Below are positions 1 to 43,163 of a DNA stretch of 64,000 bases, piece by piece; positions within the stretch are counted from its first letter, which is position 1, and each line of letters starts with the position of its first letter. A program made the translations under genes and the position numbers. The notes beneath the pieces are model-generated. The model saw only the letters and a program-made list of their open reading frames with translations. It searched no databases and had not been told where the DNA came from. This DNA comes from Eledone cirrhosa (Eukaryota), in the NCBI GenBank assembly GCA_964016885.1, contig OZ024742.1:340566001-340630000 (forward strand), in the 5' to 3' direction.

Positions 1-55
1 CAAAAGTTCAAAAGCAGCCACTGTAGATTTCACCACAACTTCGACTGCTACAGAC

Positions 56-1890
56 ATGCCTGTCATCCAATCCACTGAACGTGAAGGCAAAACTGAAAAG
101 CTACCATCACAACCTTCTGTGTTAGCCGCAGTATCATCTGAAAACGACATCACCACCACAACAACAACAACTCAGAGCAACAACGACAATAAAACCGACA
201 GTTTCAATGTAAACACAAATGGCGGTGGCAACATCAACAACAAACAAAACAACAACAACAACACCAATAACAACAGCAAGAACAACACCGACAACAAGAG
301 CAAGAGAGGCACCACATTTGCTGCAGCAGCAGCAAAATCAAAGCGCTTATTGAATATCGATATTAGCGATAAAGACAAACAGCTGACCCAGGCGTGGAGG
401 CTAATTAAATGGGAGAAGTCCTTGGCAAACCTGATCATCCCGGACGGGGCAATAACGGCCATGCAAAGGAGAACGATGTACTTTCGATGCATTTCGGTCC
501 AGACACGAAAAGTGGAACTTGCCAGCCAAGCAGAGGTCGAGGCTGCTTTTTGGAGTGCATCGGAAGTGACATAGAGTATAAAGCAAGAGCCAAATAGTTC
601 GGTACCATCTCGGTACTGTTCAAAACTGAGGCCCTTGCTATTAAGCACTCGGTGACCCCCTGCAGAACGGAACGCATTATCATGCACCCGTCCTACATGT
701 GTAAAAAGACAGTAAAGGCCCGCATTCCCAGCATCGCACCAGGAATGAATATATGGTGGTTGCTGGGATGCGTAATCGAGGAGGGGACAGACACTACCCT
801 CCTGGATATCAAAAGGACAGAGAGAGAAGACTGGTCCGGAATGGATTTGGAGATTCTTCTCCAAATGAAACCGGAGGACATGAACAACATGACGGATTTT
901 GCCCGCCTGCAGGACGGGACAAAAATCCAACTAATCACTGAGGTAAGAAGGCCACACTGCTTCGTCTGCGGGGAAGCAACGCATCTGCAAGCCTTCTGCC
1001 CTCAGCGCAAAAATGCAGGGCGTCGCAAATCTACTTTGTTGCCAACGCCAGTGTTAGCACGTAAAGCTGCACCACCACCACCAAAAACAACACGAACAAA
1101 GACACGGACACCAACATCAAAAACAGCCGGACCACCACCAACACTGAAACCAATTCAAGGGGAAAACGAGGAAAGCTCCCCCCCCCACCAATTATACACA
1201 TAGACAAAACGATAAACGCACACACAGGCACAGAGACACTCACAGCCACAGACCCTTTGTCTTCTAGCAGCGAAGATGAAGGAAAACCCAAAAGTGCAAA
1301 AAAACAGAGAAAACTCATCAAAAAAGCCCCAACAAAACACAAAAACATACACCACTAACGCAAACACTTTCCCAATAACATCAGCACCAACAGCAGCATC
1401 GACACCACCACCCACAATCCCTGAAACGCAAATAACCTAAACAAACACAAGTACAAATGAACACACAAATACCTGAAATTGCAGACACCATACCTACAAC
1501 AAACACAGACACACCCGAAACAACACCACCAAAACCATCACCACCACAGTCACCAAAACGAAAACAAATAAAACCACACCAACAAAATGTTAAAAACTTC
1601 GAGCTTGTCAGAAGGGCCAACGATAAACTGATGGCTCTCTTAGCACGAAGCGAGGACATTCAAACAGAGGGGAGATTTTTGAAATGAGCACATTTTGCGT
1701 GCCAGAAGATTTGCTTCTGGTCCGAATGTCACTCGATTCCTTCAAAGAAATTCGGGAGAGCTTTCCTCAAGACGGGGAAACCCCAAATGTGAAACACACA
1801 TCGAGAATTTTAAATGGGTTCCCAAAAGAAACCCCACCAACGCTGGAGGTCGAACCACCCGACCTTCACAAGACCCCGGGAGGTAAGTAA
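56..1890 (+). pseudogene. ORF1 (gag-like CCHC protein) of copy 1, disrupted
   Basis: Fragments 56-574, 652-1203, 1457-1687 and 1684-1890 are collinear with the intact ORF1 at 13922-15835 (PSYM/PTYM, NIWW, RRP-CCHC, QTEG). Confidence 0.85.
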
Positions 1891-1919
1891 ATATTCCCTC
1901 TCTCTTTTAGCTTGCCACC

Positions 1920-4900
1920 ATGGCCATATTAAGAGTAGGAAGTTTAAATGTTCGCGGCTTGGGGTCACCCTGGAAGCAGGTTCGCCTGCTCAATGACTTC
2001 AGGTCGCTGGAAATGGATGTGATTGCTGTCAGCGAGACCAGAATTTCCGACACGCGTCCACTAGCCCCCATTTTGACCACTATCTGATCTTTGCATCTGT
2101 TAGCAGGACGGGAATGAGAGGTGGGGTGGCAGTGCTCTTTAGGAAAGGACTGGATCTCGAGGTAAGGTCGATCTTCCGGGACCCGGACGGTAAGTTGGTG
2201 GTCTTGGATGTGAGCAGTAGCGAAGGTGGTGCCTTTAGACTGCTGGCCGTCTACGCTCCTACAGGGGCCGGACGACTGGACTTCTTTAGGTGCCTGGAGA
2301 CTTTTCTGGGTACGTCTCGCACTTTACTGTTAGCGGGGGACTGGAGTGGCATCTTAGACGCACGCTTGGGTTGTGTGGGAGTAGCTGATAGGAGCGGAGT
2401 TTGCAAAGGCCTCAAGCACCTACTCAGCTGTTCCAACTGTCTGACAGGTATCAACTAGATTTCCCTAATGTGCCAGTATGGACATGGACCAACCGAATGG
2501 GGTCGTCTAGATCGTATATAGACAGGATCTTCATTAGGAAAATAGATAGAAATAGTGTAGGCTGCCCACTTTTTAAAACGGTCGCCTATTCATATCACAA
2601 ATTTGTGATCTGTATGGTCGACCTAGATAAAACGCGTAGGTTGGGACCGGGTTACTGGAAGCTGAACATGTCATTTCCGGCACGCAAGGCTTACAGAGAC
2701 CAGGTCAAGAATTTAGTTAAGCAAAAGTTGACAGGGGGATCATCAACAACTGATGGTGGGGGGCTCTCAAAAGAGAGATTAGAGTAATGTCGATAGAGTT
2801 CAGCAAAGAACTAGCGTTAGAGAAAAAAACAGAAAGGAGGGGGAGCTGGTAGATCAGTTAGACGAGGCTAGTTGTAGTGACATTGCAACTGACGTGCTAG
2901 CAGCGACAATGGCATTTGACCATTTCTTCAATGCGAAACACGAAGGTTGCATTGTCAGAGCTAAGGCGCGTGCGCTGAGAAGCGAGGGAACCAAAGCTGT
3001 TCGATGGGCCCGCGTGGCGGAAGCGCAGTGTGGTAATAAAACCACAATTCGGTCTTTGGCGAACCGAGACGGACATGAGATAAGCGATTCCAAGCGGATG
3101 TGTGAGGCCTTTCGCCAGCATTTTGCTCGGTTGTTCGGGGAGAGTGCCGAATCAGAGAGAGTAGCGGATTTCAGTCCCTACCCTGACGGCTTGCCGCGCA
3201 TCTCGACGGTCGACGCTGAACGCTGCGAAAGGCCGATTACTTCAGCCGAAATTCAGGATGCCCTTGTCGGCTGCATGAGGCGCAAGTCACCCGGTTTGGA
3301 TGGCCTGCCCTACGAGCTTTACGTAAATATGCCAGACTTGTTCTCCGATCTCCTCGAAGCACTCTACTGCAACTGACAGCAGAATGGGAGTATTCCCAGT
3401 TCTGTGAGCAGGGGAGTCATGACGCTGATAAGGAAAGACGAGAACAAGAGGGATACATTAGACAACTTCAGGCCCATAACTCTGCTCAACACAGAGTTTG
3501 AGATTTTGGCCAAGGTGTTAGCAAAGAGACTGGCGCTTGTCGTCGAGGATTTGGTTGGGGAGGCACAAACTTGCGCAATCCCAGCCAGGTCCATACACGA
3601 CAATCTCCACCTCATGCGATACATCATAGAGAGGGTAGGGTGTAAACCTGGCTTCGGTGGGGCACTGATCAATTTAGATCAATCGAAAGCATTCGATAGG
3701 GTCGACCATCGGTATATGGAGTTTGTCTTCAAAGCAGCTGGCTTCGGCCCTGTCTTCAGAAGCTGGATCGCTGCAATGCACAGCGGCACACGCTCGGTGG
3801 TCAAGGTTAATGGCCACCTCTCGAAACCATTTCGGCTCTCCCGATCGGTGCGCCAAGGGTGTCCTCTCTCTTCCCTTCTGTACGTATTGACTCTCGAGCC
3901 GTTACTGCAGAAGCTGGAGCTGTTTCAGGGCATGTTGTGTCGAATACCTCAGAGATCGAGGTGGTCGGCACCTTATTGAAGGAATATGAAAGTTTGACAG
4001 GAGCCAAACTTAACCCGGAAAAGTCGGTGGGCTTGCAGCTCGGAACCTGGAGAGGCAAGTCCATGCCGTCCAACAGCGTCGTGGGCCGCTGGACGGACGG
4101 ACCGGTAAAGTTGCTAGGGGTTTAGTTCGGACCAGACCTCCAGGTGGAAAAGAATTGGGACGAGGTAACGAGCAGAGTAGCCAGTCTCATCCCAAAATGG
4201 CCTGGGAGGAAGCTATCACTGAAAGGTCGCGCGGAGGTGGCGAATGCGTACATCGCGTTCGTCATCTACTACGCCTGACCGTCGTCCCTTGCCCCCGCCG
4301 CGCCTCGTCAAGTTGGAACGGCTCCTCTTCAAATTCTTGTGAAGGGGACAAGTTCCGTTGGTGAGGCGGTCCATCTGCTGCCAGCACCCTCTACGCGGAG
4401 GGATGGGCATGCCATGGCTAATGATGCGCAGACATGCGTTTAGGCTGCGACATCTCCAGATATTCTGCCTAAACGGTGAACAGGTGTGGTCGCCGTTTAT
4501 CAGACGGACCTTTCCGCAGCTCATTTCTTTAACTGAGCTGCAGTCCTGGGTCAAGAAGAGACCGAAACTGGGTGACTGGCACCTGGAATGTTGCCAGGCA
4601 CTCACTGCCCTCTACCAAGCGGATAATACGATCAGTAGAACTTCCACTCTCGAGTTCTATAGGGGATTAGTGGTGGGCAAGTGCGATGACGCACTCGGAG
4701 GAGCTTTGGGCCTCGACGAAGTCGAACTGACCAGTCTGTACCGGAGGATTTTCGAGCCGGTGACGATGGACAATTTCCGGAAATCCCTCGCTTGGCAGTG
4801 CTACCGGGGGGGGGGGGGGGGCACTGCCGGTTCGGGATAAACTCTACAGGCACGGAAGTGCTGTCAGACGGACCTTCCCAAGATGCACAGAACGACGAAA

Positions 4901-5289
4901 CCGTTCTGCACGCACTTGTCCAATGTCCGTGCGTTACTGACTTGTGGAATTATGTCGAACAGCTACTGCCGCGTGTGGAACGAATTCGGCTATCAGCCGA
5001 GTCCAAAGTGAACATCGACCCGCCGCCTTCCTTAGGTCAGGAAGAGCAGGAAACTTTCCTCTGTCTGGTCGCAGTTGCGAAAGAGGTTATATGGTGGACC
5101 AGATTAAAAAGACTGAAGGCAGATACTTTTCTCTTCGGCCAATCCCTCATCAACTTCTTCAAGTTTCACCTGGAAAGGAATGTAAGGGTGGGGAGAGAAG
5201 TGCTGCCACCTAGTACATTTGCTGAAAGGTGGATGAATGTGGCCAGAATGGCCCGTGTGAATGGGCCTACTCTGACCATGCGCCTATAG
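1920..5289 (+). pseudogene. ORF2 (APE endonuclease-RT) of copy 1, disrupted
   Basis: GCCACCATGG start at 1920; several frameshifts and stops; the YADD segment is deleted near 3930 relative to copies 2-4; ends ARVNGPTLTMRL*. Confidence 0.9.
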
Positions 5290-5585
5290 GCTAGCTAACT
5301 TGAGGAGAGGGTGCTCTCCCTGGGTGCCCTAGAAGCGCAGGGTGGTTCAGGATTGGTGGGGTACCCGAGTCACCCCAGGGTCGTCCACCCCCTATCGGGG
5401 AATTTATTTTGTTGTATTTATGCATAGTTTATTTTAGATTATTTATATCTTCATTGTTAAATTAGTCTTGCCATTGTGCACTTCTACTCGACCTTATTGT
5501 AAACCCCCACTGTCCCTGTCTTTGTATTGTCCCCTACATGTCGGCCCTTGTGGAAAATAAATGAAATCATCATTATTATTATTGC

Positions 5586-5851
5586 TTGGCAGTTTCGGTA
5601 GAAGGTCGGACGCCATGCTTTGCAGCAAAGAGTTACGGCCCTTTATTTTATCGACCCCGTAAGGATGAAAGTTAAAGTTAACCTCGGCGGAATTTGAACT
5701 CAGACCATAAAGGGCCATAGAGTTACGGCCCTTTATGGTCTGAGTTCAAATTCCGCCGAGGTTAACTTTACCTTTCATCCTTACGGGGTCGATAAAATAA
5801 AGTACCAGTAATGTACTGGGATTATTGCTGGCCTTGTGCCTATAGTAGAAA

Positions 5852-5893
<42 letters not shown>

Positions 5894-6418
5894 GGGTGGT
5901 GCATTGGTAGTGTCGGGAGCGGGTCGGACATCATGCTAGGTGGCAGAGAGTTTCAGCCTTTTACGTTCTGAGTTCAAATCCTGCCAAGTTTAGCTGTGAC
6001 TTTCATCCTTACGGGGTCGATAAAATAAAGTACCAGTCACGCACTGGGGTCGATTTAATTGACTTTCCCCTCCTCCAAAATTGCTGGACTTGTGCCTATA
6101 TAAGAAACCATTATTATTATTATTAGGCGGTGGATTGGCAGTATCATTAGAGGGTTGGACGCCATGCTTTGACGCATAGAGTTACGTCCCTTTCCATTCT
6201 GAGTTCAAATCCCGCCGAGGTTAGTTTTGCCTTTCATCCTTACGGGGTCGATATAATAAAGTACCAGTAATGTACTGGGTAATTGCTGGCCTTGTGCCAA
6301 AAGCAGAAACAATTATTATTATTAGGGCGGTGGATTGATAGTGTTGGTAGAACGTTGGACATCATGCTTCGTGACATAGTGTTACGGCCCTTTATGTTCT
6401 GAGCTCAAATACCGCCGA
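5586..6418 (+). mobile_element. Tandem cluster of about 4 tRNA-derived SINEs separated by (ATT)n; first copy has an internal inversion
   Basis: Repeated unit GGCGGTGGATTGGCAGTATCGG...GAGTTCAAATCC (B-box like)...GCCTTTCATCCTTACGGGGTCGATAAAATAAAGTACCAG...TTGCTGGCCTTGTGCC...AGAAAC-(ATT)n at about 5586, 5893, 6125 and 6324 (partial). Confidence 0.85.
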
Positions 6419-8002: not shown

Positions 8003-9590
8003 TTCCCTTCCCCCTCACTCTATATCTCTCTCTTATCTCCCCCTTCCCCCTCACTCTATATCTCTCTCTTATCTCCCCCTTCCCCCTCACTCTATATCTC
8101 TCTCTTATCTCCCCCTTCCCCCTCACTCTATATCTCTCTCTTATCTCCCCCTTCCCCATCACTCTATATCTCTCTCTTATCTCCCCCTTCCCCCTCACTC
8201 TATATCTCTCTCTTATCTCCCCCTTCCCCCTCACTCTATATCTCTCTCTTATCTCCCCCTTCCCCTCACTCTATATCTCTCTCTTATCTCCCCCTTCCCC
8301 CTCACTCTATATCTCTCTCTTATCTCCCCCTTCCCCTTCACTCTATATCTCTCTCTTATCTCCCCCTTCCCCATCACTCTATATCTCTCTCTTATCTCCC
8401 CCTTCCCCCTCACTCTATATCTCTCTCTTATCTCCCCCTTCCCTCTCACTCTATATCTCTCTCTTATCTCCCCCTTCCCCCTCACTCTATATCTCTCTCT
8501 TATCTCCCCCTTCCCCCTCACTCTATATCTCTCTCTTATCTCCCCCTTCCCCATCACTCTATATCTCTCTCTTATCTCCCCCTTCCCCCTCACTCTATAT
8601 CTCTCTCTTATCTCCCCCTTCCCTCTCACTCTATATCTCTCTCTTATCTCCCCCTCCCCATCACTCTATATCTCTCTCTTATCTCCCCCTTCCCCCTCAC
8701 TCTATATCTCTCTCTTATCTCCCCCTGCCCCATCACTCTATATCTCTCTCTTATCTCCCCCTTCCCCCTCACTCTATATCTCTCTCTTATCTCCCCCTTC
8801 CCCCTCACTCTATATCTCTCTCTTATCTCCCCCTTCCCCCTCACTCTATATCTCTCTCTTATCTCCCCCTTCCCTCTCACTCTATATCTCTCTCTTATCT
8901 CCCCCTGCCCCATCACTCTATATCTCTCTCTTATCTCCCCCTTCCCCATCACTCTATATCTCTCTCTTATCTTCCCCTGCCCCCTCACTCTATATCTCTC
9001 TCTTATCTCCCCCTTCCTCCTCACACTATATCTCTCTCTTATCTCCCCCCTTCCCCCTCACTCTATATCTCTCTCTTATCTCCCGCTCCCCCCCCCCCAC
9101 TATATATCTCTCTCTTATCTCCCCCTGCCCCCTCACTCTATATCCTTCTCTTATCTCCCCCTTCCTCCTCACTCTATATCTCTCTCTTATCTCCCCCCTT
9201 CCCTCACCACTCTATCCCTCTCTCTTATCTCCCCCCACCACTCTATCCCTTTCTCTTATCTCCCCCCACCATCTATCCCTCTCTCTTATCTCCCCCCTCA
9301 CTCTATCGCTCTCTCTTATCTCCCCCCACCACTCTATCCCTCTCTCTTATCTCCCCCCACCACTCTATATCTCTCTCTTATCTCCCCTTCCCCCACTCTA
9401 TATCTCACTCTTATCTCCCCCTTCCCTCTCACTCTACATCTCTCTCTTATCTCCCCCTTCCCTCTCACTCTGTATCTCTGTTTTATCTCCCCCCTTCCTC
9501 CACCTCTCTATTCCTCTCTCTTATCTCCCCCACCACTCTATCCCTGTCTCTTATCTCCCCCCTCACTCTATCCCTCTCTCTTATCTCCAC
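8003..9590. repeat. 36-bp pyrimidine-rich minisatellite (CACTCTATATCTCTCTCTTATCTCCCCCTTCCCCCT)n
   Basis: 12-aa periodicity ([12 protein letters not shown]) in the spurious ORF; units near-identical at left and degenerating to the right. Confidence 0.95.
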
Positions 9591-13442: not shown

Positions 13443-13532
<90 letters not shown>

Positions 13533-13558
13533 GTCTGTCTATCTATCTATCTCTCTAT
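13443..13558. repeat. (CTAT)n microsatellite, apparent Tx1 target
   Basis: About 28 tetramers, immediately upstream of two stacked Tx1 insertions. Confidence 0.95.
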
Positions 13559-13688
13559 TTTTTGTTATATCTTATTTTATTTTTATATTTTGTTATTGCC
13601 TCCTCCTTATTGAGGACGCCTTTTTGTGTAAACTCCCCCCTTTGTACTTGTCTCACTTTTGATGCCCTAGTGGCAAATAAAAGAAACA
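13559..13688 (+). mobile_element. Extremely 5'-truncated Tx1 3'UTR fragment with 15-bp TSD
   Basis: Family 3' motif TGTAAACTCCCCCC...TGCCCTAGTGGCAAATAAAAGAAA; flanked by TATCTATCTCTCTAT at 13544-13558 and 13689-13703. Confidence 0.8.
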
Positions 13689-13921
13689 TATCTATCTCTC
13701 TATCAGACGTGTGTAACTTCGCGGAGAAGTTTCCGTTAATTTATGTAAGAAAAAAACGTGAGTTTTTAGTTAAATTTTATATCATTGTGTAACTTGATCC
13801 CCCGTCTGATAGTTCAGGTGGTGGGTCAACTCATTTTCCCCCCTACAGGGGCGGAATATCCATTTGAAAATTTTTTCTCCATCGAATCTTTCAAAAAATA
13901 TTGTAAAATTTTGATTACGTT

Positions 13922-15835
13922 ATGAACGCTGCGTCCAACGATAATGGTGGTGGAGAGGCGGTAAGACTACAAAGCTCGCAGTCAACAACGTCTTTTTCAC
14001 TAGATACTATAGAGAGGGAAAGACGAAATGAAAATGTAAAAACGAATTCATATTCAAACAACACAAATGACACCAAACAATTCAATGACAACAAAAATAA
14101 CAGCAACACCAATAATGATGATAAAAGCAACAATGATAACAACAACAAAGAAAAAAATAAAGACAACACCAATAACACCAGCATCAAAGACAACAACAAC
14201 ACCAAGGAAAATACGAATAATACCAACATCGGTGACAACAAGAATAACAACAACAATAACAACAATAATGACAACACCAACAACACGGAATCCACAAAGA
14301 AACCAAAAATCTCCTTTGCAGAGAAAGTTCAAAAAAAGGAAGAATTGATATATCTCGACATAACAAATGCTGAACAACTTTTAAAGGACGCTAGGAGATA
14401 TGTCACTTTCGATAAAAATGGTGCTTTCAGCATCAATTCTCCGGTAGAAATTCGCAAGGAAACTGCTCTCAAAACGATAGTTTTTAGGACAGTTTCCAAT
14501 TCTACCCAAAAACCAGGCCAATTGTCACAGAAAGAAATTGAACTGGTTTTCAAAAATTCAATGTATGATGTTGCATTCATTCAAAGAAGCAAACTTTTTG
14601 GGAGTATTTCGGTACTCATGAAGGATCAATTGACGGCCCAAAATTACTCTGTGTCGCCAATTGTATCCAACCTGTACACCTTTTTCCCTACATACATGGG
14701 AAAAAGGACACAAAAGATCAGAATCACGAGTGTCACACCAAAGGTGAACATATGGTGGATACTGTGCTGCTTCATCAATTTTGATGAAGACAGAATACTG
14801 TCAGTAGGCAAGTCCCCCAGAGATGTATTCAATGGGACTAGCATTGAAGTTCTGGTGCAAATGAGCCCAGAGCGAATAGCTATGATCCCACAGCGTGTAC
14901 TCCTGGACGGACTCACGTACATAAACTTTTCGGTTGAGGGTAGGCGGCCTTCATGTTACCATTGCTTTAGCAGGGGCCACCTGAGGGCTTCCTGTCCTAA
15001 ATTAATGAACCAAAAAAAGGCTCTTCTGCCGACACCCATCAAAACAACACAACCACCAACACCACCACAACAACAACACCAACACACAAAAATAAACACA
15101 ACAAACACAGTCCCACCAAACCCCACTCCACCTAAAACCACTGCAAAATCACAGACAGACACAACAGCTCCTGAAGACATACCCCTCCCCAATCACACAG
15201 ACGATACAACAGATGAGGCTATCTCGCCATCACCCAGTGAAGACGAGGGAGAACCCCATCGCTCGAAAAGAAAGAAAAGACATCACAAAAGCAAAAGACC
15301 AGCAAACACTACCACAAACATACAACCACCAACAGAAACAACAAAAACATCACAAACAAAACCCCCACCTCCTGAAAACAAAATACCTACAACAAAACGA
15401 AAGCACACACAAGAACTACAGACAAAAACAAACACAACACAAGAAAATTACACTTACACATACATAAACACTGAAAACAAAACACTAATGGAGACCATCA
15501 CGAATGACCCTTCGGTGAAAACCGAAGGGAAAACTTTCGCCCACTCTATTAAAAATAGCAAAAAACTGAACCTAAAACTGATTAGGGTCCCTATACAAAC
15601 TTATAGGTCCCTAAAAGAAACATTTGAGAAGGATGTGGGGAATTCCTGCGTGAAACCACTCAATCGCGTCCTTCTCAAATGCCTCCCCACCCCAGACACC
15701 CCCATCCCACCAGACCCCACCCCACCAAACATCTGCGTCCCCACCCCGCCGGAAACCACCACCCATCCAGACAACCCCTCCAACATCCCCATGGAAATCG
15801 TGCGGCCTGGTCCCCAGGAGGCGAAGGGTGAGTGA
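13922..15835 (+). CDS. ORF1, 637 aa gag-like nucleic-acid-binding protein (CCHC knuckle), intact
   Basis: Uninterrupted ORF; Asn-rich N-terminus, conserved core, CYHCFSRGHLRASC, Pro/Thr-rich linker, basic patch RSKRKKRHHK, conserved C-terminal block (YTYIN...TEG...VKPLNRVLLK). Confidence 0.9.
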   Translation: MNAASNDNGGGEAVRLQSSQSTTSFSLDTIERERRNENVKTNSYSNNTNDTKQFNDNKNNSNTNNDDKSNNDNNNKEKNKDNTNNTSIKDNNNTKENTNNTNIGDNKNNNNNNNNNDNTNNTESTKKPKISFAEKVQKKEELIYLDITNAEQLLKDARRYVTFDKNGAFSINSPVEIRKETALKTIVFRTVSNSTQKPGQLSQKEIELVFKNSMYDVAFIQRSKLFGSISVLMKDQLTAQNYSVSPIVSNLYTFFPTYMGKRTQKIRITSVTPKVNIWWILCCFINFDEDRILSVGKSPRDVFNGTSIEVLVQMSPERIAMIPQRVLLDGLTYINFSVEGRRPSCYHCFSRGHLRASCPKLMNQKKALLPTPIKTTQPPTPPQQQHQHTKINTTNTVPPNPTPPKTTAKSQTDTTAPEDIPLPNHTDDTTDEAISPSPSEDEGEPHRSKRKKRHHKSKRPANTTTNIQPPTETTKTSQTKPPPPENKIPTTKRKHTQELQTKTNTTQENYTYTYINTENKTLMETITNDPSVKTEGKTFAHSIKNSKKLNLKLIRVPIQTYRSLKETFEKDVGNSCVKPLNRVLLKCLPTPDTPIPPDPTPPNICVPTPPETTTHPDNPSNIPMEIVRPGPQEAKGE

Positions 15836-15866
15836 TCTCTTCCTCTTTTAACTTTTCAGCACCAAC

Positions 15867-18800
15867 ATGGCCAATATAAGAGTTGGATGTGTGAACGTAC
15901 GCGGCCTGGGGATGCCCTGGAAACAGGGCAAACTCTTAAACGACCTCAGGTCGCACAGTTTGGATGTGGTAGCCATTTGCGAGCCCAGGATCCACGGCGA
16001 GCGACAGCTGGCCCCCATCTTCGATGACTTTGAGATCTACGCATCTCTCTGTCAACCGGGGGGTGGGGGCGGAGTTGCCGTTTTACTGCGGAAACACCTG
16101 AGCCTCGTAACACAGACGGTACATCTGGACCCGGAGGGTCGACTGGTGGTCCTAGACGTTGACGGTAGTGAAGGTGGAGCGTTCAGGCTGGTGGCCCCAT
16201 ATGCCCCATCCGGGACACCGCGGCCAGACTTCTTCAAACGTCTAGAGACTTTTCTGGGAACGTCCCGCTCCTTGCTTTTAGTGGGGGACTGGAATGGAAT
16301 GCTAGATGCACGTTGGGACTATGTGGGAGCATGTCCCGATAAAGGGGGGGGGGGTGTAACAGCCTCAAACAGTTAATCGACCGATTTGACCTGGCCGATA
16401 GATATCGACTAGATTTTCCGACTGCGCCACTGTGGACGTGGAGTAATCGTAGCGGAACATCTAGATCGTACCTAGATAGGGTTCTAGTTAGAAATAAGGA
16501 TAGGGACATGTTAAGCTGTCCACAAATGTTCATGGTTGCCTATTCAGATCACAAACTAGTGACCTGCATGGCCAACCTTGATAGAACCCATAGACAAGGA
16601 CCCGGCTACTGGAAGCTGAACTTGTTGTTACCGACAAGCAAAGCCTACAGTAGACGGATTAGCACTTTAGTTAAACAGCACTTGACAGGGGCCATTGTCA
16701 ACAACAGATGGTGGTACTCTCTCAAGAGGGCAGTTAGATTAGACTCGATAGTTTTTAGTAAAGAATTAGCGTTAGATAGAAATAGAACCGAGAAGGAACT
16801 GGTAGATAAAGTAGAAGAGGCAATTAGAAGTGGCAACGTAGCCAGCGTGCTAGCAACGAGAACGGCCTTGGACCAGTTCTTCGACGCAAAGCACGAGGGC
16901 TGCGTTGTCAGAAGCAAAATACGTGCTCTGGGAAATGAGGGAGCCAAAGCTGTTAGCTGGGCCCGAGTGACGGAGGCAAAAAGTGGCAACAAGTCCACGA
17001 TTCGGTCTTTGAAGGACCAAAACGGACGCGTGATACGTGAGCCGAAGCAGATGTGTGCGGCTTTTCAGCGGCACTTTGCTCGGCTGTTCGGGGGGGGGGG
17101 GGGGCGGCGCGTCGGGAGAGGCTATGGATTTCGGTCCATACCTCGACGGCCTACCGCGACTCTCGGACAGCGAGGCGAAGTTCTGCGAAAAGCCGATTTC
17201 AGCCACTGAGATAGGGGACGCGCTGAGCCAATGCGGCAAACGCAAATCTCCAGGTCTCGACGGTCTACCCTACAAATTTTGCGTAGCAATGCCGGACTTA
17301 TTCTCCGGTCTCCTGGAAGCGGTCTACTGCAACTGGCAACAGAACGGGAGAATTCCCAGTTCTGTAACCGGGGGCGTGGTCACACTAATCAGGAAGGACG
17401 AGAATAAGGGGGATGACATAGGCAACTTCCGGCCCATAACTCTGCTAAACACAGAGTTACAGATTTTGGCCAAGGTGTTGGCAAAGAGGTTGGCGCTTGT
17501 CGTCGAGAACCTGGTGGGAGAAGCGCAGACATGGGCGATCCCGACCAGGTCCATACACGACAACCTCCACCTCATGCGATACATCATAGAGAGGGTAGGG
17601 TGTAAACCCGGCTTCGGTGGGGCCCTGATCAACTTGAATCAGTCTAAGGCTTTCGATAGGGTTGACCATCGTTACCTGGATGCGGTGCTCGAGGCGGCAG
17701 GCTTCGGACCCGTGTTCAGGGGCTGGATTGCTGCAATGCACAACAGCAACATCTGCTCAAGGGTCAAGGTGAACGGTTACCTCTCGGAGCCGTTCCATAT
17801 TACGCGATCCATTCGACAGGGATGCCCTCTCTCCTCCCTTCTGTACGTACTGACTCTCGAGCCACTACTGCGGTAGCTGGAGCTATTGCAGGGCATCCCT
17901 CTGGAACAGGGACTGCGGAAAGCGGCGTCGGCCTACGCCGACGACGTGACAGTAATGGTGTCGAGCGCCTCGCAAATCGAGGAAGTCGGCACCTTACTAA
18001 AGGAATACGAAAGTCTCACAGGAGCGAAGCTGAACCGGGACAAGTCCATCGGTTTGCAACTCGGATTGTGGAGAGGCAGACCGATGCCTTCCGATGGCGT
18101 CGTCGCACGCTGGACGGAAGGACCGGTAAAGCTGCTCGGGGTCTGGTTTGGTCCGGACCTCCAGGTGGAGAAGAACTGGAACGAAGTGACGGCCAAGGTG
18201 TTTGCAATCACCCAGAAGTGGGCCAAGTGCAAACTATCCTTGAAAGGTCGAGCGGAGGTGGCGAACACTTTTATAGCGTCCGCCATCTACTACCGCTTGA
18301 CCGTCGTGCCTTGTCCAGCCAAAACGCTCGCCAAAATTGAGCGCGCGCTCTTCCAATTCCTTTGGAAGAGGCGGGCTCCTTTGGTGAGAAGATCCATCTG
18401 CTGCCAACACCCTTCTAACGGAGGGCTGGGGATGCCGTGGTTGACGATGCGCAAACACGCGCTCAGGCTGCGGCACCTCTACGTATTCCTCACCGGACAA
18501 CCGGTGTGGGCCCCGTTCGTGAGGCGAGCCTTCCCACGACTCGTCTCGCTGACCGAGCTGCAGTCCTGGGTCAAGCATAGACCGAGGAAAATGGGCGACT
18601 GGCACATCGAATGTGCTCAGGCGCTCACAGCCCTCTGGCAGGCGGACCCGGTGATCAGTGGAGACTCCACTTCGTCATTCTATAGAGGGTTGGTCCGCAG
18701 CAAGTGCGACGACGCGCTCGGTGAAACTCTAGGCGTAGAGGAAGATGAACTGGCCAGTCTGTTCGGTAGGACCTTCCGCCCGGGACCGATGGACAACTTC

Positions 18801-19316
18801 CAAAAGTCCCTGGCCTGGCAGTGCTACCGAGGAGCTCTACCAGTTCGAGACAAGCTCTACAGACATGGGCGCCCGGGCAGGGACCCTGCAAAACAGATCT
18901 GTCCGAGGTGCGTGCGAGACAAAGAAACCATCGCGCACGCATTCATACACTGCCCGGGCGTCACTGACCTGTGGGGCTATGTAGAACGACTATTGTCGCG
19001 GGTGGGACCAATCCAGTTGACCACCGAGTCCATTGTCATGATCAAACCGCCACCCTCCTTCAAAAACGAAGGAGAGGCGGTTTTCTTTTGTGTGATAGCT
19101 ATGGCGAAAGAGGTTGTATGGTGGACAAGGTTGAAAGGGCTGAGGTCAGACACCTTTCTCTCCGGCCAACAACTGATTCTTTTTTTCAAATACCACTTTG
19201 GAAGAAGAATCAGGATGGAGAGAGAGGTGCTGTACCCCAGCAAGTTTTATGAAATGTGGGTGAAAGTGGCGAGAATGGCCCGAGTGAATGGGCCTTCTCT
19301 CTATATCAGCCTGTAG
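15867..19316 (+). pseudogene. ORF2 APE endonuclease-RT-Zn finger of copy 2 (two G-run frameshifts, one stop)
   Basis: NVRGL, GDWN, YLDR, YSDH, KSPGLDG, RQGCPLS, AYADD, CPRC...ETIAHAFIHC; breaks near 16350 and 17095 (G homopolymers) and TAG at 17874-17876. Confidence 0.93.
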
Positions 19317-19451
19317 GTTGTGGAAAAGGAGGAGGAGAGGAAAGGAGTACAAGCTCTTCGTACTCCTGGAGATGAGGGTTGCACATTTTTTTTCGGGGGT
19401 ATGTGTTACCCATATAAACTGTCTCCCTCTATTGGGGAAAATCGACTAACT

Positions 19452-19553
19452 TTTAAATTCCATCTGTGATAACATTTTACACGTTTTTATTGTATGTAAA
19501 CTTCCCCCTTTGTATTTGTCCCCTTCTTTTGTGCCCCTGTGGCTAATAAAGAA

Positions 19554-19603
<50 letters not shown>

Positions 19604-19704
19604 TTAAATTCCATCTGTGATAACATTTTACACGTTTTTATTGTATGTAAACTTCCCCCTTTGTATTTGTCCCCTTCTTTTGTGCCCCTGTGGCTAATAA
19701 AGAA

Positions 19705-19754
<50 letters not shown>

Positions 19755-19873
19755 TTAAATTCCATCTGTGATAACATTTTACACGTTTTTATTGTATGTA
19801 AACTTCCCCCTTTGTATTTGTCCCCTTCTTTTGTGCCCCTGTGGCTAATAAAGAAATATATCTATCTCTATAT
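19452..19873 (+). repeat. Triplicated Tx1 3' end, 151-bp period including (TCTA)n
   Basis: TTTAAATTCCATCTG...GGCTAATAAAGAAA starts at 19452, 19603 and 19754. Confidence 0.92.
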
Positions 19874-19985
19874 ATATATATATGATGGCCAGAAGATCAC
19901 CGATAATTTATAGTCCTGGCTTCTAGCTCTACTTTTTAATTCATATGTATCACATTCGCAACAACGCAGCACGCCATTTTTCATT

Positions 19986-21118: not shown

Positions 21119-21363
21119 TATATATAGAAATATAGATAGATAGATATATTTCTTTATTTACCATGAAGGCATAAAAAGAAGGGACAAATACAAAGGGGGA
21201 GTTTACATATAATCGAGTAAAAAGGGTGTAACATGAAAATAATCGAAAATAACCTCAAAAGGGAGGGGACGTGATGGGGGTTGCACACACCCCCGAAAAA
21301 GTGTGCAATCCTTTGCCCGGGGAGCACATGGAGAAGGTGCTCCCCTCTCCTTTACTTCTTTAC

Positions 21364-24300
21364 CTACAGGATGGTATACAGAGAAGGCCCATTTACACGA
21401 GCCATTCTTGCCACTATCACCCACCTTTCATAAAACTGCCTGTGGCCAAGCACCTCTCTCTCCATTCTTATCCTTCTTCCGAAGTGATATCGGAAGAAGT
21501 AGACCAGACTATGGCCAGAGAGGAAGTTGCCTGACCTCAGACCTTTCAATCGTGTCCACCAAACAACCTCTTTCAACATGGCTATTACGCACAGAAAAAC
21601 CGCCTTTGCTTCCTTTGTGAAGAGGGGAGGCGGTTTGATTGTCATCACGGACTCGGCGGTCAATTTAATCGGCGCCACCCGCGACAGCAGTCGTTCGGCG
21701 TAGCCCCACAGATCAGCCACGCCCGGACATTGCACCAATGCGTGCGCAACGGTTTCTTCGTGACGCACGCATCTAGGGCAAATCTTTTTTGAGGGATCCT
21801 TGCCCGGGCGCCCGTGTCTGTAGAGCCTCTCTCGAACGGGTAGAGCCCCCCGGTAGCACTGCCAGGCCAGTGACTTCTGGAAGTTGTCCATTGGTCCTGG
21901 GGCGAAAGTCCTACCGAACAGGCTGGCCAGTTCGTCTTCTTCCATGTCCAGCGACTCTCCAAGGGTGTCATCGCCCCTGCTAGCCACCAGCCCTCTATAG
22001 ATTGATGAGTTGGATTCTCCACCGATGGCCTGGCCCGCTTGCCAGAGAGCCCTGAGCGCCTGAGCACACTCAGTGTGCCAGTCTCCCAGTTTTCCGGATC
22101 TTTGCTTGACCCAGGACTGTAGCTCGGTGAGCGAGACGAGTCTCGGAAAGGCTCGTTTCACGAACGGAGCCCACACCGGTTGACCAGTGAGGAATACCTG
22201 TAGGTGCCGTAGCCTTAATGCGTGCCTACGCATCATCAACCATGGCATCCCCAGCCCTCCTTTCGAAGGTTGTTGGCAGCAGATGGATCTTCTCACCATA
22301 GGAGGGCGCTTCTTCCAAAGAAATTGGAAGAGCATGCGTTCCATGGTGGTGAGTGTTTCCTTAGGGCGAGGCACGACAGTCAGGCGGTAGTAGGTGACGG
22401 ACGCTATGTAAATGTTCGCCACCTCCGCCCGCCCTTTTAGGGACAGCTTACACTTGGCCCATTTCTGGGTTAGTGCAAACACCTTGTTCGTAACCTCGTT
22501 CCAGTTCTTTTCCACCTGGAGGTCCGGTCCAAACCAGACCCCAAGCAACTTTACCGGGCCCTCCGTCCAGTGTCCGACGACACCGTCAGGAGGCATCGGT
22601 CTGCCTCTCCACGTTCCGAGTTGCAGCCCGATGGATTTTTCCCGGTTCAGTTTCGCTCCTGACAACCTTTCGTAATCCTCCAGTAAGGTACCGATCGCCT
22701 CGATCTCCGAGTCGGTCGATACCATTACTGTTACGTCATCGGCGTAGGCCGACACCGCCTTGCTCAATCCTGGTTGCAGGGGGATACCCTGCAACAACTC
22801 CAACTTCCTCAGTAAAGGCTCGAGAGTCAATACGTACAGAAGTGAGGAGAGAGGGCACCCCTGTCGAATGGATCGTGTGATTTCGAACGGCTTCGAAAGG
22901 TAGCCGTTCACCTTGATCCTAGAACAGATGTGGTTGCTATGTAAGGCAGTGATCCAGCCTCTGAAAACAGGACCGAACCCAGCCGCCGCTAGCACCGCAT
23001 TCAGGTAACGATGGTCGACCCTATCGAAGGCCTTAGACTGATCCAAGTTGATCAGGGCCCCACCGAAGCCGGGTTTGTTGCCAACCCTCTCTATGATGTA
23101 TCGCATGAGGTGGAGGTTATCGTGAATGGACCTGGATGGGATAACACATGTCTGCGCATCTCCCACCAGGCCACCCACGACAAGCGCCAACCTCTTTGCT
23201 AACACCTTGTCCAAAATCTTTAACTCTGTGTTTAGCAGGGTTATGGGCCGAAAATTATTTATACTATCTCCCTTGTTCTCGTCCTTCCTCACCAGCGTGA
23301 CTACGCCCTTGGCTACAGAACAAGGAATTCTCCCGTTCTGCTGCCAATTGCAGTAGACCGCTTCGAGGAGTTCGGAGAAGAAGACCGGCATTGCTAAATA
23401 AAGTTCGTAAGGTATACCATCGAGACCTGGAGATTTGCGTCTGCTGCATTGGCTCAGCGTATCTCCGATCTCATCAGCCGAGATTGGTCCCTCGCAGGAC
23501 TCTGCCTCTTCGCTCGAGAGACGCGGCAGGCCGTCGAGGTATGGACCGAAATCCACGCCCCCGCCCGGACCCTCGCCTCCCCCGAACAATCGGGCAAAGT
23601 GCCTTTGAAAGGCCTCGCACATCTGCTTAGGCTCCCGGATCACCCGTCCATCTTCGTCTTGCAACGACCGGATGGAGGATCGATTTCCACTCTTAGCTTC
23701 TGTCAGGCGGGCCCAGCCAACGGCTTTGGCCCCCTCATTACCTAGAGCACGTATTTTACTTCGAATGACGCAGCCTTCGTGCTTTGCATCGAAAAACTGG
23801 TTCAAGGCCGTCCTCGATGCCAGCACTATGGCCACATCTTCGCTCTTGATTGCCTCTTCTAATTTACCTGTTAATTCTTTCTCGTTTCTATTCCTATCGG
23901 CAGCTAACATCTTGCTATAACTTATTGATTCTGTTCTAATCTCTCTTTTGAGAGATACCCACCATCGGTTGTTGACGATTGCACCCGTCAACCTCTCCTT
24001 AGCTAATCTGCTAATCCGGTTTCTGTAAGTCTCTTTTGCCGGTAAAGACAAATTAAGTTTCCAGTAACCGGGACCCTGTTTATGTGTTTTCTCGAGATTG
24101 ACTACGCAGGTCACTAATTTGTGATCCGTGTAGCCAACCATGCGCATTTCTGGACAGCTTAATATGTCCCTATCCTTACTTCTAACTAAGAATCTATCTA
24201 AGTACGATCTAGATTGACCACTGTGGTTTCTCCAAGTCCAGGTAGGCACAGTTGGAAAATCTAGTCGATATCTATCGACCAAGTTCAAACGGTCGAGTAA

Positions 24301-24800
24301 CCCCTTGAGGCTGTTACACCCCCTCTATTAGGACATGCTCCTGCATAGTCCCAACGTGCATCTAGGATGTCATTCCAATCCCCCGCTAGAAGCAGGGAAC
24401 GCGACGTTCTCAGAAAAGTCTCCAAACGCTGGAAGAAGTCGGGCCGTTCAGCTCCGAAAGGGGAGTAGACGGCGACCAGTCTCAAGGCCGCACTTTCACT
24501 ACTGCCAACGTCTAACACCAAAAAACGACCCTCCGGGTCCGAGTGCACAACCTGTACGGCAAGACCCAGGTGTTTTTGCAGCAGTACGACAAACCCACCC
24601 CCACCTCCAGGTTGACAGAGAGATGCATGCACCTCAAAGTCATCGAAGGTGGGGGCCAGCTGCCGCACGACGCTGATTCGAGTCTCACAGATAACCATTA
24701 CATTTATACTACATGACCTGAGGTCATTTAGAAGCTTTGCTTGCTTCCAATTTGAGCCCAGGCCACGTGCATTCAAACATCCTACTCTTAACACATCCAT
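21364..24800 (-). pseudogene. ORF2 APE-RT-Zn finger of copy 3 (single frameshift)
   Basis: 171-aa and 974-aa ORFs join at a G run near 24320 (G5 versus G6 in copy 4); AYADD and CPRC...H...C intact. Confidence 0.92.
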
Positions 24801-24833
24801 GTGGGCGGCAGAGCCAAAGGAGAGTGTAGAGAC

Positions 24834-26731
24834 CTACCTTTCCGCTTCCCGGGGTTCGGGTTGCACGACTTCCATGGGGTCGGGGGTGTTGGGTGAAGGG
24901 GTGTCTTGTGGTGGTGTGGGGTCGTCAGTGTGTGGTGGGGTTGGGGTGTTTGGAGTTGTGTTGGGGAGGGGAAGGGGATGGGGAAAGCTTTTTAGTAGGA
25001 CGCGGTTTATGGGTTTGACAGAGGGTGGTCCTACGTCCTCCTTAAAATCCTTTTTTAGTTTTTGGTAGAGGTTCATTGGGATCTTTATTAATTTTAAATG
25101 TGGGTAGTTTTCTGAAGAAACAAAGTTTACACCTTCGGTTTGTACCGAAGGATTATTGTATATGAGTTCATTTAATTTATTATTGTTTCTGTTGATGTAA
25201 GTATAGTGTAATGTCTTTTTTTCGGATGGTGTGAGTGTTTCGAAGAGGGGAGGGGCCGGTTTGGTTTTGTTTGTTGCTGGAGGGGTGTTTTCTGTTTTGT
25301 TGGATTGTGTTGACATTTGGGTGGGGGTTGTTTGGCCTTGTGTGTTTTGCACATGTTTTCTTTTTTTCTTTTTAATCTGTCTGAAGGACTCCGTTTCTTC
25401 CTCCGAATTCGTTGGGTTATCTTCAGTGTTGGAGGGAAGAGGTATGTTTGCTGGTAATGTTCCGTGTTGGTTTTCTTTGTGGGGGAGATGGATGTCACTA
25501 TGTTAGACTGTGTTGTGTGTTGTGTCTGCGGTGGTTGTGTTGTTTTATTGAGTGAGAGGTTGGGTGGGCCTGTATTTTGTTTTGGGGTAATGTGTTGTGA
25601 CTGTTTGTGTTGTGGTGGTGGTGTGGTTTTACTGAGGGACGGGTTGGGTGGGACTGAGTTTTGTTGTTTGTTTATCTGTTGTGGTGGTGGTGGTGGAGCT
25701 GGTGTTGGTAGCAGGGTTTTCTTTTTGTTGAGTTGGGGACAAGCGGCCTTCAGGTGCCCTCTGCCTGCACAGATATGGCAAGACGGCCTTCTCCCCTCCA
25801 CGCTAATGTTTATATACCCGTGGCCCTCTAATAGGATTCTGTCGGGTATTTGGGCGATGCGTTCAGGCTTCATTTGCACTACCAGCTCTATACCTGTTCC
25901 ACTGAACGCATTGCCTGTGGTTTTCCCAATGGAAATCACGTTGTCATTCACTGGATCGATGAAGCCAGCTATGAGCCAGCAGTAGTACACATCTGGCATC
26001 ATTGCATCCAGCCATATGCGTTGAGTTCTTTTCCCCATATAAGATGGATAAAAGGTAAAATTTTTCGAACGAATCGGTGACAAAGCACATTTTTTTGCCG
26101 CCGATTCGTTCTTCATGATAATTGCTAGGCTTCCATACAGTCTGTCTTTTCTTATGAAAGTGGTTTCATTAAGTACTTCTGTGAGTACTGTTTTGATATC
26201 TGCTTGAGAAGGCTGTTCAGGTTTTTTTGTGCTGTTGTTGATGGTGCGGAACTTGACCGTTCGGCTTTCAATGTCTTTGGTGAATTCTTGAGGCATTTTT
26301 ACCGATAAAATACCATTCTCTCCTTCACTTATGTATTGTTTGGCGTCTGTGATTCTTCGTGCCACATCTGAAATATTTTCCGGTATATAAGTCAAAGATT
26401 TCTTTGTTGTCTGTGCAAATGAAATCTTGTCGTGTGCTTTGCTTTCTGTTATGGTGTTATTTTCAAATGTTATTTTTGTGTTTGTTGTGTCTTTGTTTGT
26501 GTTATTAGTATTGTCATGCAATTTTTCAAATTTTTTTTTTTCGTTGTTGGAATCCATGTCCAGATTTGTGTTTTCGTCATTTTTTTTCTCCGCAGATTCG
26601 TCTGTTTTTATTTTTATTTTTCCTTCCTTCTCTATGACGTTAGTTGGGAAGGAAGGGGGGACTAAAGCGTGCGAGCTTACAACTCTTACCGCTGTCCCCC
26701 CACCACTATTTTCGTTCGCTGCGTTTAACAT
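24834..26731 (-). pseudogene. ORF1 of copy 3 (single frameshift)
   Basis: MLNAANENSGGGTAV matches copy 2 MNAASNDNGGGEAV; CHICAGRGHLKAAC; frame changes in the Pro/Thr linker and continues in ORF 24834-25352. Confidence 0.88.
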
Positions 26732-27015
26732 TTCTGTTAGACGATTGAAATTGTTTTGCCACAAAATTTTTAAAACAGGTTTTTCACCTCTGGGAGGGGT
26801 AAAGATGAGCTGACCCACCGCCTGACAGTTCAGACGGAGGGTCAAGCTACACAATTGTATCAAAATTAAATTTGAACTCCCAACATTTCCGCAATAAATT
26901 TGAACAAAACTTCTGCGCGAAGTGAATTACATCGACACTGTAGAACAGACGACAGCTAGATTGAAATATAGATAGATAGATAGATAGATTTACATGAATG
27001 TATATGTGTGTGTGT

Positions 27016-33449: not shown

Positions 33450-36400
33450 CCACCACCACCACTACTACTATTATTACTACTAACACCACAACAATTACCA
33501 ACAACAATAACATAAAAACAATCATTACTTCATACACCTCAACCACCCTAACGATCACCATCACCACAACCACCACAAACATAACACCACCATCACCATC
33601 ACCACAATCGCCACAAACATAACACCACCATCACCACCACCACAACTACAACAACAACAATCACCCTAACCACACCTAACGAAAACAAAACATCCAGCTT
33701 CCATCCCATCAAAACCACCACTACAACCACCACAGACCAAACCACCACCAATACCAACACTTCTACCACGAACAAAACCACCACTACAACCACCACAGAC
33801 CAAACCACCACCACTACAACCACCACAGACCAAACCATCACCAATACCAACACTTCTACCACGAACAAAACGACAACTACAACCACCAATACCAACACTA
33901 AAACCACAGACCAAACCACCACCACTACAACCACCACAGACCAAACTACCACCAATACCAACACTAAAACCACAGACCAAACCACCACCACTACAACCAC
34001 CACAGACCAAACCACCACCAATACCAACACTAAAACCACAGACCAAACCACCACCAATACCAACACTAAAACCACAGACCAAACCACCACCACTACAACC
34101 AACACAGACCAAACCACCACCAATACCAACTCTTCTACCACGAACAAAACCACCACTACAACCACCACAGTCCAAACCACCACCAATACCAACACTTCTA
34201 CCACGAACAAAACCACCACTACAACCACCACCGACCAAACCACCACCAATACCAACACTACTGCCACGAACAAAACCACCACTACAACCACCACAGTCCA
34301 AACCACCACCAATACCAACACTTCTACCACGAACAAAACCACAACTACAACCATCACCAATACCAACACTACTACCACGAACAAAACCACCACTACAATC
34401 ACCACAGTCCAAACCACCACCAATACCAACACTTCTACCACGAACAAAACCACAACTACAACCATCACCAATACCAACACTACTACCACGAACAAAACCA
34501 CCACTACAACCACCACAGTCCAAACCACCACCAATACCAACACTTCTACCACGAACAAAACCACCACTACAACCACCACCAATACCAACACTACTACCAC
34601 AAACAAAACCACCACTACAACCACCACCGACCAAACCACCACCAATACCAACACTACTACCACGAACAAAACCACCACTACAACAACCACAGACCAAACC
34701 ACCACCACTACAACCACCACAGACCAAACCACAACCAATACCAACACTTCTACCACGAACAAAACCACAACTACAACCACCACCAATACCAACACTTCTA
34801 CCACGAACAAAACCACAACTACAACCACCACCAATACCAACACTACTACCACAAACAAAACCACCACTACAACCACCACCGACCAAACCACCACCAATAC
34901 CAACACTACTACCACGAACAAAACCACCACTACAACCACCACAGACCAAACCACCACCAATACCAACACTACCACAACGAACAAAACCACCACTACAACC
35001 ACCGCAGACCAAACCACCACCAATACTAACACTACTACAACGAACAAAACCACCACTACAACCCCCACAGACCAAACCACCACCAATACCAACACTTCTA
35101 CCACGAACAAAACCACCACTACAACCACCACCAATACCAACACTACCACCACAGCCAAACCACCACTACAACCACCAGAGACCAAACCACCACCAATACC
35201 AACATTACTACCACGAACAAAACAACCACTACAACCACCACAGACCAAACTACCACCAATACTAACACAACTACCACGAACAAAACCACCACTACAACCA
35301 CCACAGACCAAACTACCACCACTAAAACCACCACCAATACCAACACTACTACCACCAACAAAACCACCACTACAACCACCACCGACCAAACCACCACCAA
35401 TACCAACACTACCACAACGAACAAAACCACCACTACAACCACCACAGACCAAACCACCACCAATACTAACACTATCTACCACGAACAAAACCACCACTAC
35501 AACCACCACAGACCAAACCACCACCAATACCAACACTTCTACCACGAACAAAACCACCACTACAACCACCACAGACCAAACTACCACCAATACCAACACT
35601 ACCACCACAGACCAAACCAGCACCACTACAACCACCACAGTCCAAACTACCACCAATACCAACAATTCTACCACGAACAAAACCACAACTACAACCACCA
35701 CAGACCAAACCACCACCAATACCAACACTACTACCACGAACAAAACCACAACTACAACCACCACAGACCAAACCACCACCAATACCAACACTACCACCAC
35801 AGACCAAACCAGCACCACTACAACCACCACAGTCCAAACTACCACCAATACCAACAATTCTACCACGAACAAAACCACCACTACAACCACCACAGTCCAA
35901 ACCACCACCAATACCAACACTTCTACCACGAACAAAACCACAACTACAACCACCACCAATACCAACACTTCTACCACGAACAAAACCACAACTACAACCA
36001 CCACCAATACCAACACTACTACCACAAACAAAACCACCACTACAACCACCACCGACCAAACCACCACCAATACCAACACTACTACCACGAACAAAACCAC
36101 CACTACAACAACCACAGACCAAACCACCACCACTACAACCACCACAGACCAAATCACAACCAATACCAACACTTCTACCACGAACAAAACCACAACTACA
36201 ACCACAACCAATACCAACACTTCTACCACGAACAAAACCACAACTACAACCACCACCAATACCAACACTTCTACCACGAACAAAACCACAACTACAACCA
36301 CCACCAATACCAACACTACTACCACAAACAAAACCACCACTACAACCACCACCGACCAAACCACCACCAATACCAACACTACTACCACGAACAAAACCAC

Positions 36401-36990
36401 CACTACAACAACCACAGACCAAACCACCACCACTACAACCACCACAGACCAAACCACCACCAATACCAACACTACTACCACGAACAAAACCACCACTACA
36501 ACCACCACAGACCAAACCACCACCAATACCAACACTACCACAACGAACAAAACCACCACTACAACCACCGCAGACCAAACCACCACCAATACTAACACTA
36601 CTACAACGAACAAAACCACCACTACAACCCCCACAGACCAAACCACCACCAATACCAACACTTCTACCACGAACAAAACCACCACTACAACCACCACTGA
36701 CCAAACCGCCACCAATACCAACACTTCTACCACGAACAAAACCACCACTACAACCACCACCAATACCAACACTACCACCACAGCCAAACCACCACTACAA
36801 CCACCAGAGACCAAACCACCACCAATACCAACATTACTACCACGAACAAAACAACCACTACAACCACCACAGACCAAACTACCACCACTACAACCACCAC
36901 CAATACCAACATTTCTACCACGAACAAAACCACAACTACAACCACCACAGACCAAACAACCACCAATACCAACAGTACTACCACGAACAT
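33310..36990. repeat. (ACT)n run followed by a 63-bp-based minisatellite with module variants
   Basis: Unit ACCACCACTACAACCACCACAGACCAAACCACCACCAATACCAACACTTCTACCACGAACAAA; a marker variant at 35142 recurs at 36771. Confidence 0.93.
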
Positions 36991-37064
36991 TTTTGCATTT
37001 ACCCCCTTTTTAGGGGGTAAAATAAATATCTATTTTTTTGCCGAAAAATTTCTTTCTTGGCAGC

Positions 37065-38913: not shown

Positions 38914-38918
38914 ATCAA

Positions 38919-43132: not shown

Positions 43133-43163
43133 TCTATCTATCTATCTACCTTTCTATCTATCT

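Follow-up and report, generated by a model that had tools for sequence, protein, structure and literature searches.

Organization of the locus

The window (the whole stretch of DNA analyzed here, 64,000 nucleotides) carries copies of one LINE family, most of whose 3' ends adjoin a TATC-type microsatellite. One of these, copy 2, is nearly full-length and stands head-to-tail behind a 130-bp piece of another subfamily at the end of a (CTAT)n tract. The features on which the analysis rests are as follows.

13443–13558, plus strand: (CTAT)n microsatellite, the target tract; 116 bp, 29 units, three interruptions (13533, 13537, 13553)
13544–13558, plus strand: site 1, upstream copy of the fragment's 15-bp target-site duplication
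13559–13688, plus strand: the fragment, 130 bp from the 3' end of another subfamily of this LINE family, truncated on its 5' side (or from a SINE with that 3' end), ending in AATAAAAGAAA-CA
13689–13703, plus strand: site 2, downstream copy of the fragment's duplication
13689–13699, plus strand: within site 2, upstream copy of copy 2's 11-bp duplication
about 13697–13703, plus strand: within site 2, likely copy 2's own 5' terminus
13704–13921, plus strand: copy 2 5' UTR, homologous to that of copy 3
13922–15835, plus strand: copy 2 ORF1, an unbroken frame whose translation shows a CX2CX4HX4C knuckle (CYHCFSRGHLRASC)
15867–19316, plus strand: copy 2 ORF2 (APE endonuclease, RT, zf-RVT)
19317–19554, plus strand: copy 2 3' UTR, ending in AATAAAGAAA, with no poly(A) tail
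19452–19858, plus strand: within the outer duplication, three 102-bp 3' ends identical to one another, separated by two (TCTA)12 spacers that are also identical
19859–19873, plus strand: site 3, in which 19859–19869 is the exact 11-bp downstream duplication, followed by (AT)n flank
21127–26982, minus strand: full-length copy 3 (26962–21147), the control; it inserted once, duplicated 20 bp (TATCTATCTATCTATATTTC) and lacks a 5' fragment
37007–44700, plus strand: second head-to-tail stack (copy 4, t5 and t6, with TATC spacers)
to 42512, plus strand: copy 4, then a TATC spacer
42533–43132, plus strand: truncated t5, then a TATC spacer
43172–44682, plus strand: truncated t6, then a TATC tract

Other repeats lie in the same window: a 231-bp × 2.5 SINE-like tandem with (ATT)n (5716–6279), a 36-bp × 43 minisatellite (8005–9531), and a 6.6-kb (CAACAACAC)n-type array (54096–60687). 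A 3.4-kb ACC/AAC-rich minisatellite with a 1142-codon open frame (33585–37013) directly abuts the shortened 5' UTR of copy 4, and no TATC tract is found upstream there.

Identity of the element

ORF2 of copy 2 is broken by frame changes at two G runs (~16350 and ~17100) and by an in-frame stop at 17874–17876. The Pfam domains found in ORF2 are PF03372, PF00078 and PF13966; a Pfam search with copy 2 ORF1 returned no family. Against solved structures, the best match of a 986-aa segment of copy 3 is LINE-1 ORF2p (E 5.8e-46), and the endonuclease fragment gave no useful match; the nearest named relative of the copy 3 protein is an Argonauta hians protein at 62%, which makes an octopod the likely host. 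By its predicted domains the element is an L1/Tx1-type LINE with endonuclease, RT and zf-RVT.

A separate ORF1 with a CCHC zinc knuckle is a feature of the Tx1 clade. Such an ORF1, with a CCHC-type knuckle, is present here, together with an ORF2 that combines an APE endonuclease, an RT and a C-terminal zinc-binding domain; target-site duplication (20 bp at copy 3) and 5'-truncated copies (t5, t6 and the fragment) are found as well. In a quick RT tree with 89 rows (copy 3, 14 chosen proteins and the 74 loci, out of 80, that passed a length filter), midpoint-rooted and built without an L1 outgroup or curated references, copy 3 falls in a 64-row clade (support 97) with U2- and 5S-flanked loci and with a protein named Transposon TX1 149 kDa. 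Membership of Tx1 by phylogeny appears likely on this tree, not proven. The metagenome scan yielded mostly distant relatives at 24–37% identity, with two loci at 42–44%, and none of its 80 loci has a TCTA-type tract. Proteins P0007–P0030, mostly from ENA, are mostly ORF2 proteins of ~1,150 aa at ~40% identity, in clusters of up to 732 members; seven of them appear in the RT tree, as the sister group to the octopod clade.

The microsatellite as likely target

Nine 3' ends of the family were located in the window, eight by means of a motif designed on ends already seen and the ninth (t6) noticed through its tract, its body being shown independently by BLAST. Eight of the nine (six of seven when the three ends of the tandem described below are counted once) join TATCTATC at +3, in one register and one orientation, the junction having the form AAA-NN-TATCTATC; the exception, copy c1, joins ATC/ATT repeats. 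The octamer TATCTATC starts at 62 of 128,000 positions, only 3 of which lie outside the junction tracts, and all perfect TCTA-type tracts of at least 12 bp (10/10) fall within tracts that adjoin element ends and share their orientation. Exactly two variable bases separate the terminal AAA from TATCTATC (CA, TA, TA, TT and GA, with TC elsewhere), and no poly(A) tail is present; the junctions concerned are at 13687–13688, 19857–19858, 21148–21147, 42513–42514 and 44683–44684.

A TCTA tail made by the element itself was considered and rejected, as tracts also occur 5' of copies and inside the duplication of copy 3. In copy 3 TATC repeats stand on the 5' side and the 20-bp duplication includes non-repeat bases; the repeat is therefore a pre-existing target rather than a tail. 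Taken together, the junctions suggest that the family likely targets the GATA/TATC repeat. Copy c1 (1–5566, plus strand) is 70–75% identical to the other copies and ends on TCATCATTATTATTATT, not on TATC, and this sister subfamily may have a different microsatellite target.

The second stack (37007–44700) joins members that differ in subfamily (68% and 76% identity in their last 70 nt) and have distinct truncation points, and stacking is thus repeated within the window.

The three sites and their duplications

TATCTATCTCTCTAT occurs exactly at 13544–13558 and at 13689–13703 and as a 14/15 match at 19859–19873, just as the first-pass annotation had placed it, and site 1 is the end of the (CTAT)n tract at 13443–13558. 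The 15-mer does not mark a unique site, being the end of a (TATC)n tract and departing from the pure repeat only at position 10. Because 42 of its 45 matches with at most one mismatch are plain (TATC)n, the result of the shuffle control (0/100) overstates its significance and is no fair null. The informative part is the C at position 10, common to all three sites, which amounts to about one base beyond the repeat.

Sites 1 and 2 are identical over exactly 15 bp; sites 2 and 3, and likewise sites 1 and 3, match exactly over 11 bp only. An extra A on the left side is common to sites 2 and 3 and absent from site 1. The mismatch in the 14/15 match at site 3 is explained more simply if a shorter duplication ends there than by mutation after the insertion. 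The duplications measure 11 bp (copy 2), 15 bp (fragment) and 20 bp (copy 3), contrary to the earlier proposal that each insertion regenerates the same 15-bp site. What survives of the idea of one reused target is the reuse of the (TATC)n repeat in a fixed register; a unique 15-bp site does not.

The 3' end of copy 2 carries a feature absent from the first-pass annotation, a 151-bp × 2.8 tandem at 19452–19881: its first 3' end lies at 19554, and two more identical 102-bp 3' ends follow before site 3. Serial insertion of the 102-bp units into site 2-type sequence was rejected, the (TCTA)12 spacers being pure and without the C variant. The 3' UTR of copy 2 folds no better than its shuffles (z −0.11), and thus offers no structural reason for the break recurring at 19452. 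A conserved 3' hairpin (GCC-N5-GGC before AATAAA) found no support either, with three pairs, none showing compensatory changes, and −2 kcal/mol. The tandem may have come with copy 2's RNA, or have arisen by re-priming or been expanded by slippage or unequal exchange, or it may be an assembly artefact. If the last 102-bp unit is an earlier separate insert, site 3 would be the duplication of that insert and not of copy 2.

The fragment as a probable independent insertion

The fragment aligns to the 3' ends of copies 2, 3 and 4 at 82% over ~62 nt (scores 61–72 against shuffle maxima of 25–29), and matches neither of the 5' regions of copies 3 and 4 (scores 18–19 against shuffle maxima of 28–30; for copy 3 a local score of 19 against a maximum of 30). 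Over the last 70 nt it is 75% identical to the 3' end of copy 2, from which the two are assigned to different subfamilies; this upholds the earlier description of the piece as a 3' UTR fragment that differs from copy 2's own 3' UTR. The partners differ in length as well (130 bp and full length), and site 2, the inner target-site copy, agrees with site 1 along 15 bp and with site 3 along 11 bp, as expected of a tandem made by double insertion.

Public reads from 4 of 24 listed runs were aligned to 13531–14054 at 85% likeness, with reads clipped at 13531–13599. Bases specific to the window (13653, 13839 and 14016) are absent or nearly absent from the reads of X1 and X22, which therefore do not sample this locus, and the aligned stretch includes no unique flank of it; no empty or single-insertion allele appeared in these runs. 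As summed depths, which are not copy numbers, X1 gives 99,000–318,000 over the fragment vs 5,000–31,000 over the 5' end, and X22, a RAD library that may sample few loci, gives ~1,300–2,070 vs 35–210, a difference of about tenfold in X22. In X22, (TCTA)n stands directly before 13689 in 93 reads; for comparison, 13703 is covered by 119. From fragment-type ends, 538 reads run on into (TATC)n, and 243 and 98 into other flanks. Among the loose ends listed for X1 are those of 11 contigs before 13689; TCTA repeats close their consensus, and the letters ahead of these resemble another family 3' end, a weak hint of possible stacks elsewhere.

These observations bear on the possibility that the element regularly carries the 130-bp piece at its 5' end as a terminal repeat, the finding that the first-pass annotation had named as fatal to its proposal. 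The piece is indeed homologous to a 3' end and placed on the 5' side. However, the same repeat is not found at both ends of most full-length copies, as an LTR-like or Penelope-like element would have it: the 5' regions of copies 3 and 4 lack the fragment, the 93 reads place (TCTA)n directly before a full-length 5' end, depth drops about tenfold from fragment to 5' UTR, and the fragment is no more than 75% identical to copy 2's own 3' end. A terminal repeat is already largely refuted, and we regard it as very improbable.

The reads also inform on position 10 of site 2 (13698). In X22, minus-mate reads, nearly all of fragment type, have A in 607 of 617, and plus-mate reads have A in 54 and another base in 64 of 118; in X1 the non-A depth is ~7,000 compared with a total of 10,147 at 13703. 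The C is thus rare at fragment-type junctions (at most 10/617), and for this reason it ties the three sites together. As ~100 of the plus-mate reads cover the full-length 5' end and only 54 of 118 have A, at least ~45 of them likely keep the C. By subtraction from the depth tables, many copies of copy 2's subfamily probably have TCTCTAT at their 5' end; copy 3 does not begin with it.

Order of insertion

We consider it probable that the head-to-tail arrangement of a nearly full-length Tx1-type LINE and the 130-bp 3' end of another subfamily, at the end of the (TATC)n tract, arose by two insertions in the same register, the full-length copy likely being the first. Serial insertion, as proposed earlier, is thus still the best reading of the stack; the use of the same 15-bp site each time and the fragment-first order are the parts that we would abandon. 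Target-primed reverse transcription is the standard model of LINE insertion. Under that model the APE domain of ORF2 would nick the GATA strand at GATA/GA, and the freed end would prime reverse transcription. Copy 2 would have inserted between ...CTATC and TATCTATCTCT ATATAT..., duplicating 11 bp, with at most 3 nt of microhomology between this duplication and its own TCTCTAT-like 5' end, and would have left an intact TATC site upstream. A second RNA, primed at that upstream site in the same register and truncated after 130 nt, would then have given the fragment, whose 15-bp duplication would comprise 11 nt of target and 4 nt of copy 2's 5' end. With duplications that overlap in this manner, the 15/15 match and the 14/15 mismatch would both be explained without mutation. 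The 151-bp tandem would either have arrived with copy 2 (through donor read-through or re-priming) or have expanded afterwards.

The order follows from the 4 nt of the fragment's duplication that would exist only after insertion of copy 2, placing copy 2 first and the fragment second, just upstream. The fragment thus likely came second. The argument is indirect: the RAD reads could stem from a small number of loci, and the 5' end of copy 3 is different. On this order the pre-insertion allele would read ...CTGTCTGTCTATC TATCTATCTCT followed by (AT)n, an allele with copy 2 only would have one 15-mer directly before CAGACG, and full-length 5' ends would share TCTCTATCAGACG. Read-through (UAUC)n after AAUAAAGAAA in the RNA would fit both priming by annealing and spacers derived from the donor.

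The reading closest to the first-pass annotation retains serial insertion and reverses the order: the fragment inserted first, each insertion duplicated 15 bp, and site 3 later underwent a C-to-A change or the loss of a CT unit. Only the order sets this variant apart from the preferred explanation, and its probability is contained within that given above for two insertions; by itself we judge it rather unlikely. The 14/15 match is in its favour, and the left-side A shared by sites 2 and 3 and lacking in site 1 might seem to speak for it. That A is no evidence for the opposite order, however, because it is a feature of junctions, present at copy 3's new 3' junction (though not in its target) and at t6. 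Moreover, C seems to be the base at 13698 in many of the other full-length 5' ends, and the reversed order needs an extra mutation.

Two further readings are each less probable still. The arrangement could be the product of one event, in which the RT finished the copy 2 RNA, switched to the 3' end of an RNA of the other subfamily with read-through TATC, and copied 130 nt of it. Site 1 and site 3 would then form the single duplication, consistent with their exact 11-bp match, site 2 can be built from TATCTATC and an element-borne TCTCTAT, the same mechanism could yield the 3' tandem, and template-switch chimeras are known for L1, according to the available part of PMC4494074. A template switch does not, however, account for the extra CTAT at the end of site 1, which makes sites 1 and 2 identical over 15 nt, and the second stack, with three subfamilies and TATC spacers, is reached more easily by repeated insertion. 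At a similarly low probability, the 15-mers could be only the decayed ends of a microsatellite, with no shared duplicated site, the elements having been brought together by independent nearby insertions in one long (TATC)n, or through ectopic recombination or an error of assembly. A single base separates the motif from pure (TATC)n, the perfect identity of the 151-bp units points to slippage in the recent past or to an artefact of the assembly close by, and none of the 24 contigs listed of 860 pieces bridges the junction of fragment and copy 2. Against decay stands the fact that all three junctions share one variant in one register, although it is rare (at most 10/617) at comparable junctions, and the fragment and copy 2 are too diverged (75%) for easy homologous exchange.

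Implications

What the locus adds is a (GATA)n target, likely not reported before, of a Tx1 family in a mollusc; overlapping duplications supply a rule for ordering the insertions in a stack. Such stacks could be mistaken for terminal-repeat elements in annotation, and GATA microsatellite markers in these animals may often sit at LINE ends. A broader proposal is possible, though we hold it as doubtful: an octopod Tx1 lineage would be (GATA)n-specific, its own 5' end would mimic the target so that each insertion rebuilds the landing site, most (GATA)n tracts would hold growing stacks of mixed subfamilies whose overlapping duplications record their order, and c1 would have switched to (ATT/ATC)n. 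If true, the c1 switch would provide a natural pair for mapping endonuclease specificity.

Comparison with known systems

The mechanism is already known, both double insertion across a target-site duplication and microsatellite-targeting Tx1 elements having been published, as the available portions of the papers cited below describe. No (GATA)n-specific Tx1 and no octopod case turned up among the listings of the literature searched and in the papers cited here, although the supplements of PMC4494074, its Figure 3 target list or Repbase may list one. An annotation of Octopus vulgaris repeats gives, in the part available, 13 recently active L1-Tx1 families with 421 insertions, and the word "target" is absent from its main text (PMC13282606).

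Microsatellite targets reported for Tx1 elements in the accessible text of PMC4494074 are (TC)n for Kibi, (TTC)n for Koshi and (TTCC)n or (TTTC)n for crocodilian families. These and the present family are, as far as that text goes, APE-type LINEs with a fixed preference for one microsatellite, but the target here is (TATC)n/(GATA)n, which matches none of (TC)n, (TTC)n, (TTCC)n and (TTTC)n, and the host is likely an octopod. The same text calls for one repeat type in more than 20% of flanks; here, in one window only, 8 of 9 ends share it.

The Keno (U2 snRNA) and 5S rRNA-inserted Tx1 elements have RNA genes as targets. The latter are named Mutsu. Relatives flanked by U2 (6 of the 40 loci, out of 80, scanned with Rfam: L001, L004, L008, L015, L016 and L017, with three U2 matches in L016) or by 5S (2 of 40: L018 and L025) share the 97-supported clade with copy 3, but are distant, only ~25–33% identical.

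Stacking by repeated insertion also has precedents. Utopia elements form tandem insertions in U2 genes, according to the part of PMC4640811 available. Tandem copies of SINEU-3, mobilized by Tx1, sandwich a target-site duplication, which marks them as sequential insertions, and a single composite element was rejected for them by the author (Kojima, 2015; PMC4494074, in the text available). As described there, these tandems resemble the present stack in that sequential insertion by Tx1 machinery leaves a target-site duplication between copies, and differ from it in that the inserts are SINEs and the target is a transposon, Mariner-N4_AMi. Double insertion at one site leaves a duplication inside the junction, with R1 and jockey among the examples in the available text of McGurk and Barbash (10.1101/158386). 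The R1 rDNA array and the jockey and P-element dimers of that account are likewise head-to-tail and enclose a target-site copy in the junction, and distinct 5' truncations mark independent events in them as they do here; unlike those dimers, the present stack joins partners of different subfamilies at a microsatellite target, and its second duplication likely overlaps the 5' end of the first element.
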